A model generated the notes under the pieces. The model did no database searches. It was not told where the DNA came from and saw only the letters and a list, made by a program, of their open reading frames with translations. A stretch of 64,000 bases of DNA from Escherichia coli. Its GTDB lineage: Bacteria > Pseudomonadota > Gammaproteobacteria > Enterobacterales > Enterobacteriaceae. The position numbers and the translations under genes are program-made. The first letter of the stretch is position 1. Each line of letters opens with the position of its first letter. Location: NCBI RefSeq assembly GCF_011045215.1, contig NZ_CP049201.1; one strand, 5' to 3'. Below are positions 50,089 to 53,637 of this stretch, piece by piece.

Positions 50089-52785
50089 GTGAATAACATG
50101 GAAAATTCGGCAGCTCTGTTACGTCGTCTTAATCATTACTGTGCCCGTGCACTGGAAGGCGCAGCCTCCCTTTGCCAGACCCGGGCCCATGCAGAAATCA
50201 CCCCGGAGCACTGGTTACTGAAACTGCTGGAGCAGGGGGAAGGAGACCTTACCGTGCTGGGCCGGCGTTATGGCTGGGATATGGACGCGATATGGCAGTC
50301 GCTGCTCGGCTGGCTGGATAACCAGCCCCGTAGCGTACGCAGTCGCCCGCAGCTTGCGCCGTCCCTGAATGCCCTGCTGAAACAGGCCTGGATGGTGGCC
50401 TCATTACAGGGGGAAGAACATATCCGCAGCGTGCATCTGCTGGGTGCCCTGACGGAACATCCGCACCTGGTTCGCTGTGACGGGCTGTGGCCCCTGCTGA
50501 CACTGAGTCAGAGTCAGTTGCAGCGTCTGTCCCCGCTGCTGGATGCGCAGTCTGATGAGTGTCCGGAGAGATTACAGGATGCAGAGCCTGTGCTGCCTCA
50601 GGGAGACAATGTGACCTTTATCGGGCGCCCCGTCGGTGCGGATACGGCGGGTATACCGTCAGGTGACCTGCCGCCTGTGTTACAGAGTGCGCTGGATAAA
50701 TTCACCCGGGACATCACGGCCAGTGCGAGAGAGGGTAAAATTGACCCGGTATCGGGGCGCGATACGGAAATCCGCCAGATGGTGGATATTCTCTCCCGCC
50801 GCCGCAAGAATAACCCGATTCTGGTGGGGGACCCCGGTGTGGGGAAAACGGCTCTGGTGGAAGGGCTCGCCCTGCGTATTGTGGAAGGTAACGTACCGGA
50901 ATCACTCAGACCCGTCACCCTGCGCACCCTTGACCTCGGCCTGCTGCAGGCCGGTGCCGGCGTGAAGGGGGAATTTGAACAGCGCCTGAAAAACGTGATT
51001 GATGCCGTGCAGCAGTCACCGGCTCCTGTTCTGTTGTTTATAGATGAAGCCCATACCCTTATCGGGGCCGGTAATCAGGCTGGCGGCGCGGATGCGGCGA
51101 ACCTGCTGAAGCCTGCGCTGGCGCGGGGTGAACTGCGCACCATTGCCGCCACCACCTGGTCTGAGTACAAACAATACCTGGAACGTGACGCGGCCCTGGA
51201 GCGGCGTTTTCAGATGGTCAGAGTGGACGAGCCGGATGATGAGACGGCCTGTCTGATGCTACGCTCCCTGAAATCCCGTTATGCGGAACATCATAACGTG
51301 CATATCACCGATGAGGCGGTACGTGCTGCCGTCACACTGTCGCGCCGTTATCTGACAGAACGTCAGTTACCGGACAAGGCCGTTGACCTGCTTGATACCG
51401 CTGCTGCCCGTGTGCGTATGAGCCTCGACACGGTGCCGGAACAGCTGACCCGTATCCGTTCACAGCTCGCCTCCCTCGGTATGGAAAAACAGGCACTGCT
51501 GGAAGATATTGCCGTTGGTCATCAGAATCACGGCGAACGCCTGTCTGCCATTGAGCAGGAAGAGAATGTGCTGATGACAGCACGTGATGACCTGGAGCAG
51601 CAGTACGCCCGGGAGTGCGAACTCACCGGTGAGTTACTTGAAAGCCGCAGCGATATTTCCCGCCAGAGTGAGACACATCACCTGCAGCAGGCACTGCACG
51701 ACATTCAGCAGAATCAGCCCCTGCTCAGTGTGGATGTTGATGTACGCACCGTGGCCGGTGTGGTCGCGGACTGGACCGGGGTGCCGTTATCCTCACTGAT
51801 GAAGGACGAACAGACGGAACTGCTGCATCTGGAAAAGGATATCGGCAGACGGGTGGTCGGACAGGACGTGGCACTGGAATCCATTGCACAGCGTCTGCGT
51901 GCGGCGAAAACGGGTCTGACATCCGGTAACGGCCCCCAGGGGGTGTTCCTGCTGGTTGGCCCCAGTGGTGTGGGAAAAACTGAAACGGCACTGGCACTGG
52001 CAGACGCGATGTACGGCGGCGAAAAATCACTGATTACCATCAATCTGTCGGAATATCAGGAGCCCCATACGGTTTCCCAGCTTAAGGGCTCACCGCCCGG
52101 GTACGTGGGATACGGTCAGGGGGGGATTCTGACGGAGGCTGTGCGTAAACGCCCTTACAGCGTGGTGCTGCTGGATGAAGTGGAAAAGGCCCACCGGGAT
52201 GTGCTGAATCTGTTTTATCAGGTATTTGACCGGGGCTTTATGCGCGACGGCGAGGGGCGTGAAATTGACTTCCGTAATACGGTCATACTGATGACCTCCA
52301 ACCTGGGCAGTGACCTTCTGATGCAGCAACTGAGCGAAAAGCCGGAGACAACGGAATCGGAGCTGCATGAGCTTATCCGTCCACTGCTGCGCGACCACTT
52401 CCAGCCTGCCCTGCTGGCTCGCTTTCAGACCGTGATTTACCGTCCGCTGACACAGTCTGCCATGCGCATCATTGTGGAGATGAAGCTTGCACAGGTCTGT
52501 GAACGCCTGCACTGCCATTATGGACTGAGTACATCGGTTGATGAACGTGTGTACGATGCCCTGACATCAGCCTGCCTGCTGCCGGATACGGGCGCCCGGA
52601 ATGTGGAGAGTCTGCTGAACCAGCAACTGCTGCCGGTACTGAGCCGGCAGTTGCTCAGCTATCTTGCTGCCAGACAGCATCCGACGTACCTGTCTCTGAC
52701 GTGGAATGATGAGGATGGTATTGTGATAGCGTTTGATGGAATCAATAGCGATTATCCGCAGGAAAGCATATATGGACAGTGCTAA
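50089..52785 (+). CDS. clpV: ClpV (TssH) AAA+ ATPase
   Basis: 898 aa; two Walker A motifs (GDPGVGKT, GPSGVGKT), Clp-N domain. Confidence 0.95.
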   Translation: MNNMENSAALLRRLNHYCARALEGAASLCQTRAHAEITPEHWLLKLLEQGEGDLTVLGRRYGWDMDAIWQSLLGWLDNQPRSVRSRPQLAPSLNALLKQAWMVASLQGEEHIRSVHLLGALTEHPHLVRCDGLWPLLTLSQSQLQRLSPLLDAQSDECPERLQDAEPVLPQGDNVTFIGRPVGADTAGIPSGDLPPVLQSALDKFTRDITASAREGKIDPVSGRDTEIRQMVDILSRRRKNNPILVGDPGVGKTALVEGLALRIVEGNVPESLRPVTLRTLDLGLLQAGAGVKGEFEQRLKNVIDAVQQSPAPVLLFIDEAHTLIGAGNQAGGADAANLLKPALARGELRTIAATTWSEYKQYLERDAALERRFQMVRVDEPDDETACLMLRSLKSRYAEHHNVHITDEAVRAAVTLSRRYLTERQLPDKAVDLLDTAAARVRMSLDTVPEQLTRIRSQLASLGMEKQALLEDIAVGHQNHGERLSAIEQEENVLMTARDDLEQQYARECELTGELLESRSDISRQSETHHLQQALHDIQQNQPLLSVDVDVRTVAGVVADWTGVPLSSLMKDEQTELLHLEKDIGRRVVGQDVALESIAQRLRAAKTGLTSGNGPQGVFLLVGPSGVGKTETALALADAMYGGEKSLITINLSEYQEPHTVSQLKGSPPGYVGYGQGGILTEAVRKRPYSVVLLDEVEKAHRDVLNLFYQVFDRGFMRDGEGREIDFRNTVILMTSNLGSDLLMQQLSEKPETTESELHELIRPLLRDHFQPALLARFQTVIYRPLTQSAMRIIVEMKLAQVCERLHCHYGLSTSVDERVYDALTSACLLPDTGARNVESLLNQQLLPVLSRQLLSYLAARQHPTYLSLTWNDEDGIVIAFDGINSDYPQESIYGQC

Positions 52786-53413
52786 AGAAATTGCCCGGGA
52801 TATGCTGGAGTCCGTAAATATTAATGGGGATGGGTTTCTGGGGGCCGTCGGGAAGGGGCTCATATCTTTGCCAGTCAGTCTCGGTTATATGGGATATGAT
52901 TTTACAGATACCGGGCATAGGCGGGAAAACCAGAATGACAAATTCAGAATGGCCAGACTGGTAGAAAAAGGCATTTTCAGCCGTGATATTATTGGGAAAA
53001 TTATCAGTATTTGTCTTGAAGACTTTGTATCCCGGATCAATATGGAAAAAATAGGCTCCATTGTGAAGAACGTTTCAGGAGATCTGGCAGGTAGAATGGC
53101 ATTTGCTGAATTGACCGGGGTTAAACTGGGAGAGGCTCTGGTATCCAGAGGGCTGGCTGCTTTTTTTGCAGGGAGTTTTGCCGGGTTGTTATTATCTGTT
53201 GGCGCAGAGACATCGCGTGCGATTTACACATCCCGTTTTCTGAAAGACAGAAATCCGGTGTTGCATGATAAGCTGAAAGCTCAGGGGGATTTGGATCTTT
53301 TGTACTTCCTTGTTGAAGATATTGTGCGCCCGTTTGAACGAGCCTGTATTGTCGCAGACCGAAATTCGGCTGAGTTTGACCGGATATGCGAATATTTTTT
53401 CGGTGGTTTATGA
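52772..53413 (+). CDS. Hypothetical T6SS-associated protein with glycine-zipper-like hydrophobic segments (candidate membrane-targeting effector)
   Basis: ORF 52733..53413; preferred start Met 52772; no signal peptide; segments GDGFLGAVGKGLISLPVSLGYMGY and GEALVSRGLAAFFAGSFAGLLLSVG. Confidence 0.45.
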   Translation: MDSAKEIARDMLESVNINGDGFLGAVGKGLISLPVSLGYMGYDFTDTGHRRENQNDKFRMARLVEKGIFSRDIIGKIISICLEDFVSRINMEKIGSIVKNVSGDLAGRMAFAELTGVKLGEALVSRGLAAFFAGSFAGLLLSVGAETSRAIYTSRFLKDRNPVLHDKLKAQGDLDLLYFLVEDIVRPFERACIVADRNSAEFDRICEYFFGGL

Positions 53414-53637
53414 AGATAAAAAGAACATTACTTATAATGCTTTCCCGATTTATCCGTGGCGCAGGTATGGGGTTAGGTGCGTCGGGTATTGTATTTACAG
53501 TCTGGTTCTTTTTTCTCTCATCTTCTGAATTTAAATATCTGTGGGGAGGGCTCTCTGTTGCGTTATTTTTTGTCGGTTATCTGATGTATCGATTTGCATA
53601 TGCATATATTTACGATGAATGGGATGATTATCAGTAA
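53410..53637 (+). CDS. Small two-TM membrane protein (candidate immunity protein)
   Basis: ORF 53386..53637; start Met 53410 in ATGA overlap with upstream stop; two hydrophobic helices. Confidence 0.45.
   Translation: MKIKRTLLIMLSRFIRGAGMGLGASGIVFTVWFFFLSSSEFKYLWGGLSVALFFVGYLMYRFAYAYIYDEWDDYQ

Follow-up and report, generated by a model that had tools for sequence, protein, structure and literature searches.

An Ssp6/Sip6-like gene pair between clpV and vgrG is a probable effector-immunity module of the Escherichia coli T6SS-1 cluster

A 64,000-nucleotide stretch of Escherichia coli DNA (contig NZ_CP049201.1 of RefSeq assembly GCF_011045215.1; hereafter the window) carries a type VI secretion system (T6SS) cluster in which two short open reading frames (ORFs), here termed ORF-A and ORF-B, lie between clpV and vgrG, and the question that this locus raises is whether the pair belongs to the secretion machinery or constitutes one of its toxins together with a dedicated immunity protein. 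The original prediction, made by reading the sequence, had proposed a membrane-targeting T6SS effector, likened to pore formers, and a tiny membrane protein as its immunity partner, and had considered that no family could be assigned by eye. The former proposal is supported by the homology of the pair to Ssp6/Sip6 of Serratia and by its genomic context, the two lines of evidence that form the basis of the assignment, and ORF-A/ORF-B very probably represent an Ssp6/Sip6-family effector-immunity module carried as cargo in the E. coli T6SS-1 cluster. The latter held in so far as Pfam and NCBIfam returned no match, but a family could nevertheless be assigned through homology. The features of the pair are as follows.

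52772..53413, + strand: ssp6-like gene (ORF-A), 213 residues, predicted all-helical, no signal peptide; candidate T6SS-delivered pore-forming effector
53410..53637, + strand: sip6-like gene (ORF-B), 75 residues, two predicted transmembrane helices; candidate cognate immunity protein
53410..53413, + strand: ATGA stop/start overlap of the ORF-A TGA with the ORF-B ATG, read from the sequence as translational coupling
52760..52763, + strand: Shine-Dalgarno-like AGGA, 8 nt 5' of the ORF-A ATG and within the 3' end of clpV; putative function

Both ORFs, and their coupling through ATGA, were found in the sequence as originally described. ORF-A extends from its ATG at 52772 to a stop codon ending at 53413 and shares its first 14 nt with the end of clpV, and a GGTGG is positioned 3 nt 5' of the ORF-B ATG. 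A longer, TTG-initiated version of ORF-A from 52733 was considered and is unsupported, as 28 of 28 aligned homologues begin at or near MDSAKEIA; the 213-residue form is also the one annotated by RefSeq. Direct reading of the N-terminus, MDSAKEIARDMLES..., revealed an acidic stretch without a signal-peptide-like hydrophobic core, in keeping with the expected absence of a signal peptide. Hydrophobic segments were located by the Kyte-Doolittle method in 19-residue windows. ORF-A possesses two moderately hydrophobic, glycine-rich segments, at residues 22-40 (GFLGAVGKGLISLPVSLGYM) and 122-148, the second of which contains a small-xxx-small run (A130-G134-G138-S142) followed by G144, and these account for the glycine-zipper-like segments that had been pointed out. 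Across 29 homologues G144 never varies, and the conservation of G134 and G138 is 90% or more. ORF-B displays two hydrophobic segments, at about residues 17-40 and 41-68, in agreement with the two-transmembrane partner that had been foreseen. The GC (guanine plus cytosine) content is 58% in clpV but 45% in ORF-A and 37% in ORF-B, and the interval from clpV to vgrG contained no terminator-like sites and no excess of promoter-like sites.

A search of a 5.8-billion-protein collection at E<=1e-3 gave 186 homologues of ORF-A, 120 of which were listed, with lengths nearly always of 210-217 residues, and every organism-named homologue among the matches listed came from the Enterobacterales. An exhaustive search of 1.84 billion cluster representatives with a hidden Markov model (HMM) yielded 154 clusters, and the family is thus small and compact. 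Substitutions between ORF-A and its orthologues are biased towards the third position (for example 50/25/121 by codon position), and a small ORF with two hydrophobic segments is retained in frame 3' of the large gene in most of 25 related loci, with the ATGA overlap in 17 of the 25. The small ORFs of these loci have in common W-F-F-F-S, a tryptophan-glycine pair, G-Y and, in the second helix, R-F. The number of homologues, the third-position bias and the in-frame retention of the small ORF together argue that ORF-A and ORF-B are genuine genes and not chance ORFs, and we regard both as intact and under purifying selection, as their sequences indicate. In the same loci ORF-B is less conserved (39-47% identity) than ORF-A (56-69%); an immunity protein that diverges faster than its toxin is usual in effector-immunity pairs.

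The closest characterised relatives are Ssp6 and Sip6 of Serratia marcescens Db10, encoded by SMDB11_4673 and SMDB11_4672A (Mariano et al. 2019, PMC6889166). Ssp6 is exported through the T6SS and exerts its toxicity from the periplasm. It depolarises the inner membrane, which is not permeabilised, and forms cation-selective pores in planar bilayers; it was described by its authors as an Hcp-dependent effector and is encoded far from any T6SS gene (PMC6889166). Sip6, the product of a 204-bp ORF that overlaps ssp6 by 4 nt, is a 67-residue protein with two predicted transmembrane helices which co-precipitates with Ssp6 and confers immunity, co-immunoprecipitation being reported for the Ssp6-Sip6 pair only (PMC6889166). 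The same study described a second pair, SMDB11_0810/0809, in which SMDB11_0810 displayed residual toxicity and modest depolarisation with no detectable T6SS-dependent activity or killing in Serratia, and in which SMDB11_0809 reversed the toxicity; the authors' explanation for the silent SMDB11_0810 was a lack of expression at its isolated locus (PMC6889166).

These proteins were identified among the homologues by means of the published primers. The Serratia branch was absent from the 120 listed matches to ORF-A, from the cluster lists of the 214-217-residue matches and from a scan of genome contigs, which gave no S. marcescens, and was reached through the search of cluster representatives followed by a second homology search. 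The S. marcescens protein P0361 (loci L033 and L034) was called an Ssp6 allele by its exact match to the 35-nt ssp6/sip6 junction primer, and since the locus also consists of a 648-bp gene (215 residues) followed, with a 4-nt overlap, by a 204-bp ORF (67 residues), P0361 and its neighbour were taken as the Ssp6/Sip6 allele; the locus is unlinked to T6SS genes. The ssp6 forward primer matched only with one extra A and the reverse primer did not match as printed, apparently because one base had been lost in each of two homopolymer runs of the primer-table text. Locus L035, encoding P0364, matched exactly the forward primers for both SMDB11_0810 and SMDB11_0809. The ATGA overlap was also found in all three loci (L033-L035).

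ORF-A was 40% identical to the Ssp6 allele P0361 over 207 residues (BLASTP, E 6e-54) and 40% identical to the SMDB11_0810-type protein P0364 over its full length of 213 residues (E 3e-57). The alignment to the Serratia proteins is colinear from end to end, with ORF-A keeping all invariant positions of the broad alignment, and includes the common motifs YDF-DT--R--N--D--R, G-x-x-SRAIYTSR-L, GDLDLLYFLVE and PFE. ORF-B aligned with the small ORFs found 3' of ssp6-like genes in other species and was clearly related to the SMDB11_0809 type (44% identity, E 1e-18), while its similarity to the Sip6 type was marginal (23% identity, E 1e-3). Homology of the candidate immunity protein is thus established for SMDB11_0809 and marginal for Sip6. 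Membership in the published family requires a HMMER bit score of 20 or more on a curated Ssp6 HMM (PMC6889166), and was assessed here by BLASTP. Supplementary Data 1 of that paper lists proteins of Yersinia aleksiciae 159 (NZ_CP011975.1:1174387-1175025, HMM score 314.6) and Serratia plymuthica PRI-2c (NZ_CP015613.1:1903201-1903812, HMM score 309), for which the score of Ssp6 itself on the same HMM, 324, provides a reference (PMC6889166). The former entry corresponds to our locus L022, whose protein is 56% identical to ORF-A, and the latter was taken to be P0012, 71% identical to ORF-A, on the agreement of strain and gene length. In addition, the E. coli MEW protein WP_180562696.1, 98% identical to ORF-A, bears the RefSeq name "Ssp6 family T6SS pore-forming effector".

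The remaining characteristics of the pair also conform to the family. ORF-A falls within about 205-225 residues, is predominantly alpha-helical in its predicted structure and, by sequence reading, has no N-terminal signal peptide; a small two-helix ORF follows directly 3' with a 4-nt overlap; and the host, E. coli, belongs to the Enterobacterales, with the pair in a T6SS-linked position between clpV and vgrG.

Searches of family models and structures were uninformative. In Pfam-A no match was obtained for ORF-A, even at E<=10, or for the 29 aligned homologues, and NCBIfam release 20 gave no match to ORF-A or ORF-B. The DUF4225 label that UniRef attaches to a few homologues was dropped, there being no Pfam-A match, including for a Paramixta protein so labelled and for the Citrobacter protein P0340. 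Structure prediction, which had been suggested as a check, produced an AlphaFold2 model of ORF-A from the 29-sequence alignment with 12 helices and no strands (mean predicted local distance difference test score, pLDDT, 72; predicted template modelling score, pTM, 0.72), but neither a sequence-profile search nor Foldseek found a relative in the PDB. The best profile match (E 0.044) was an unrelated enzyme, and Foldseek with this moderate-confidence model (pLDDT 72) gave no PDB match at E<=0.001, the best match having a TM-score of 0.15 and all of them <=0.21. A colicin-like or VasX-type, structurally defined alpha pore-forming toxin was considered, and no such fold or sequence was recognisable in ORF-A by either PDB search. 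These null results agree with the published lack of a detectable structural homologue for Ssp6 (PMC6889166). Confidence in the model was low at residues 18-43 and 136-138, within the hydrophobic glycine-rich segments, and at 102-114, and the low-confidence hydrophobic helices may be the elements that insert into the membrane.

The position of the pair inside the T6SS cluster, between clpV and vgrG, was as had been reported. The neighbouring genes on which the argument draws are listed here.

49438..49929, + strand: hcp, candidate effector carrier by analogy with Ssp6
50089..52785, + strand: clpV/tssH, 5' neighbour, from the RefSeq annotation of the orthologous locus
53716..56238, + strand: vgrG, 3' neighbour (TIGR01646, E 1e-98)

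As read from the ORFs of the window and from the way RefSeq annotates an orthologous locus, the gene order is tssB, tssC, tssK, tssL, tagL (OmpA-family), hcp, clpV/tssH, ORF-A, ORF-B, vgrG, cargo genes, PAAR and tssM, and the host cluster is the chromosomal T6SS-1 of E. coli, of the Sci-1 type of enteroaggregative E. coli (EAEC). Among 5,426 complete E. coli genomes the region 52700-53720 was present at 98-99.7% identity in 35, in every case on the chromosome, whereas a related clpV was found in 297. In strain PO06021 (locus L003, 7153-8255) the slot between clpV and vgrG is occupied by a gene for a 188-residue hypothetical protein and one for a "putative T6SS immunity periplasmic lipoprotein", and in A134_1EC and CFT073 (loci L004 and L005) vgrG follows clpV directly, leaving the slot empty. 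The clpV-vgrG slot is thus an effector exchange site in E. coli T6SS-1.

Across the Enterobacterales, however, the position is conserved. Of the 25 full-length related loci, 18 or more place the pair between clpV and vgrG, with tssC-tssK-tagL-hcp-clpV-[pair]-vgrG as the gene order; four further short loci show part of this order, and L007, L026 and L028 are without T6SS genes nearby. The genera represented are Erwinia, Enterobacter, Cedecea, Yersinia, Pantoea, Citrobacter, Buttiauxella, Biostraticola and Chimaeribacter.

Several irregular loci were met in this survey. In Y. aleksiciae 159 (L022, about 8636-8860) and in L019 (8630-8860) the small immunity ORF appears to be split by a frameshift while the ssp6-like gene is intact; the two fragments of L022 combined match the intact 74-residue ORF of Y. 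proxima (L016). It would be odd for a broken immunity gene to stand beside an intact toxin gene, and sequencing error or pseudogenisation may be the reason. In L021 the ssp6-like gene is likewise intact, and the small ORF was not found 3' of 8630. In Klebsiella pneumoniae ATCC 13883 (L030, 6294-6572) the C-terminal 93 residues alone match the ssp6-like gene, at 78% identity, and no T6SS genes were seen in the vicinity; this may be a gene remnant. Finally, records labelled Chryseobacterium sp. 18061 (L008) and Lachnospiraceae bacterium (L031, a metagenome-assembled genome) contain an enterobacterial-type T6SS cluster or an ssp6-like fragment 73-82% identical to the E. coli protein; these are likely to be contamination or mislabelling rather than evidence that the ssp6-like family extends beyond the Enterobacterales.

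A comparison of vgrG among three E. coli strains carrying the same pair, namely the window (53716-56238), E100341 (L001, 21017-23536) and MEW (L002, 9945-12461), indicated what the pair travels with. VgrG residues 1-500 are 98-100% identical among the three, as are ORF-A and ORF-B, whereas the last ~340 residues of VgrG are only 29-76% identical and the cargo genes that follow are different in each strain: a Lipase_3 protein in the window, Tle1/Tli1 in E100341, and a 775-residue protein with FGE-family proteins in MEW. Recombination within vgrG, with a breakpoint at about codon 500, is implied by the sequences. Since the pair and VgrG 1-500 are constant while the C-terminus and cargo are swapped, the pair appears to travel with hcp, clpV and the VgrG core and not with the VgrG C-terminal cargo adaptor. 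ORF-A is therefore probably delivered without the VgrG C-terminal domain, which fits the Hcp-dependence stated for Ssp6.

A number of points weigh against the assignment of the pair as an active Ssp6/Sip6-family module. Identity to Ssp6 is 40% only and that of ORF-B to Sip6 is marginal, as given above, and the function proposed for ORF-A draws on homology to the Ssp6 family. That ORF-A fits no Pfam or NCBIfam release 20 model and has no structural homologue in the PDB profile and Foldseek searches leaves the pore mechanism resting on one experimental system. The fractionation of Sip6 with the outer membrane in Serratia (PMC6889166) casts doubt on where ORF-B resides and how it acts. SMDB11_0810, equally close to ORF-A, is weakly active, so membership in the family is no guarantee of potency. 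Finally, the ORF-A sub-clade holds the same clpV-vgrG position in about 20 species, beyond what is typical of swappable cargo.

The penultimate of these points leads to the alternative that the pair, although a member of the Ssp6/Sip6 family, is functionally weak, silent or active only under certain conditions in the manner of SMDB11_0810/0809, and does little killing ordinarily. ORF-A is no closer to Ssp6 than to SMDB11_0810, with its modest depolarisation and lack of T6SS-dependent killing, and ORF-B is far nearer to SMDB11_0809 than to Sip6. The silence of SMDB11_0810, however, was put down to an isolated, unexpressed locus, whereas ORF-A overlaps clpV within the T6SS operon, with no terminator before vgrG, and silence through non-expression is less likely for ORF-A on account of this embedding. 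Furthermore, both genes are intact, under purifying selection and nearly identical across the 35 E. coli genomes, and we consider the alternative unlikely.

The last point suggests another possibility, that the sub-clade represents an ancestral resident effector of the T6SS-1/i1 lineage rather than ordinary swappable cargo. The fixed clpV-vgrG position in ~20 species and the co-inheritance with hcp, clpV and the VgrG core are the reasons for entertaining it, and we hold it as a speculative idea of low probability. If it were true, a second role could be envisaged, perhaps as a checkpoint on effector loading or in assembly by way of Hcp or the VgrG core, and an ion selectivity or target range distinct from that of Ssp6 would also fit.

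The same stability could be taken to indicate that ORF-A and ORF-B are accessory or structural T6SS components, membrane-associated assembly or regulatory factors, and not a toxin with its immunity protein: the pair is kept in a syntenic cluster in those 18 or more loci, from roughly 20 Enterobacterales species, and E. coli strains that differ in the VgrG C-terminus and cargo have it in common. In contrast, however, close E. coli T6SS-1 clusters lack the pair or have another pair at this site, and the EAEC cluster, in which clpV is followed by EC042_4531 (known here by locus name only), is active (10.1101/2025.02.08.637259); the literature on EC042_4531/4532 offered nothing beyond one mention as a landmark. 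No NCBIfam model for Tss or Tag components matched, and nothing else identified the larger protein as a known structural or adaptor component, the slot being empty or otherwise filled in related clusters. Homologues including Ssp6 lie far from T6SS genes, L007, L026 and L028 show none nearby, and Ssp6 is secreted, toxic and neutralised by Sip6. The variable slot, the drop in GC content and the location of Ssp6 and SMDB11_0810 far from T6SS genes thus argue against a structural role, which we judge highly improbable. An unrelated pair of small membrane proteins, holin-like or a T6SS-independent toxin-antitoxin, lying in the cluster by chance would accord with the lack of family-model and structural matches to ORF-A, but is already contradicted by the strong full-length homology to Ssp6, SMDB11_0810 and SMDB11_0809, by the absence of adjacent phage genes and by T6SS linkage that recurs across genera, and can hardly be credited.

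With the pair taken as an Ssp6/Sip6-family module, a course of action can be proposed, of which every step after co-transcription is modelled on Ssp6. ORF-A and ORF-B would be co-transcribed with the T6SS genes, and ORF-A would be made in the producer as a soluble helical cytoplasmic protein and loaded on the expelled Hcp/VgrG structure, probably into Hcp; Hcp is the more likely carrier because of the analogy with Ssp6 and because the pair is constant while the VgrG C-terminus varies. After firing into the periplasm of neighbouring Enterobacterales, the glycine-rich hydrophobic helices would insert into the inner membrane and oligomerise to form a small cation-selective pore, leading to collapse of the membrane potential and growth arrest without lysis. 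ORF-B, translationally coupled to the toxin, would reside in the membrane of producing and kin cells, bind incoming toxin and block pore formation. We infer secretion, carrier, pore formation, ion selectivity and neutralisation through binding by ORF-B alike from the Ssp6 family.

Downstream of the pair, the vgrG of the window is followed, with a 4-nt overlap at its stop codon, by a gene at 56235-58145 (+ strand) for a 636-residue protein matching Pfam Lipase_3 (E 1.4e-20), with a GHSLGG serine motif and a GC content of 36%. NCBIfam release 20 gave nothing meaningful for it and offers no name; the protein is probably a phospholipase of the Tle type, carried as cargo by the window VgrG. Its relatives, 36-42% identical, are located 3' of vgrG in 8 related loci. 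An overlapping ORF of 258 residues at 58114-58890 (+ strand), without a family match, is a candidate immunity gene. In E. coli E100341 the region 5' of tssB (L001, 1-10427) carries DUF932, DUF905, GTPase-family, inovirus Gp2-family and helix-turn-helix regulator genes; such genomic-island-type genes are consistent with horizontal acquisition of the whole T6SS cluster.

ORF-A/ORF-B are an uncharacterised copy of a known kind, since a 2019 paper already described both the family and its mechanism. Its authors also noted homologues in clinical isolates of E. coli, outside their complete-genome set (PMC6889166), and a 2026 Salmonella survey placed Ssp6 among the effectors of subtype i1 systems; our literature search found no paper characterising the E. 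coli ORF-A protein. ORF-A is labelled "hypothetical protein" in most of the 35 genomes and ORF-B is left out in many, about half of the listed E. coli records having one hypothetical protein under the match and not two. In MEW (L002, 9639-9866) the 75-residue immunity ORF is present and 100% identical to the window copy, and is unannotated; Sip6 is likewise absent from the Db11 annotation. The practical value of the assignment is therefore one of annotation, a functional label for a gene pair mostly called hypothetical in E. coli. If it is correct, a pore-forming toxin would join the E. coli T6SS-1 effector repertoire in a minority of strains, including many Shiga toxin-producing E. coli from ruminants and food. 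No new question is opened by it, and what is mildly interesting is that the position of the sub-clade is fixed across genera while the VgrG C-terminus and cargo recombine.

In comparison with Ssp6, ORF-A is of almost the same size (213 residues as against 215), is similarly helical and free of a signal peptide, and is homologous over its full length. The two pairs also have in common a downstream ORF with two transmembrane helices, the ATGA overlap and a distribution confined to the Enterobacterales. They differ in that ssp6 lies apart from all T6SS genes whereas ORF-A is embedded between clpV and vgrG; in the C-terminus, which reads ...EYFFGGL in ORF-A and ...ELFFEKVSK in Ssp6; and in that the activity of Ssp6 was shown experimentally whereas that of ORF-A is predicted. 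The second, 'silent' pair of Db10, SMDB11_0810/0809, likewise has the ATGA overlap, and SMDB11_0809 has LSR-I-G-G, VWF-F-S, FKYLW, GY and RFA in common with ORF-B. That pair, however, occupies an isolated and apparently unexpressed locus and retains residual toxicity, whereas ORF-A/ORF-B lie inside a T6SS operon.

More distant are Tse4 of Pseudomonas aeruginosa, VasX of Vibrio cholerae, Ssp4 of Serratia and Tke5/BTH_I2691 of Pseudomonas putida, for which the outcome expected by analogy is the same as for ORF-A, namely depolarisation of the inner membrane by a helical pore, countered by a membrane immunity protein. According to the papers on Ssp6 (PMC6889166) and Ssp4, neither resembles other depolarising effectors in sequence or predicted structure, and Ssp4 differs from Ssp6 in its ion selectivity, wider target range and wider phylogenetic distribution.

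The closest counterparts are the proteins of the T6SS-1/i1 sub-clade in Yersinia, Enterobacter, Klebsiella, Erwinia, Citrobacter and Pantoea, for which no experimental characterisation was found in the literature searched. These are 50-81% identical to ORF-A, have 210-215 residues and, like ORF-A, begin with MDSAKEIARDML, end in FFGGL and lie between clpV and vgrG. Judged by sequence, the members of this sub-clade, including those of Y. aleksiciae 159 and S. plymuthica PRI-2c, are true orthologues of ORF-A, with no substantive difference between them.

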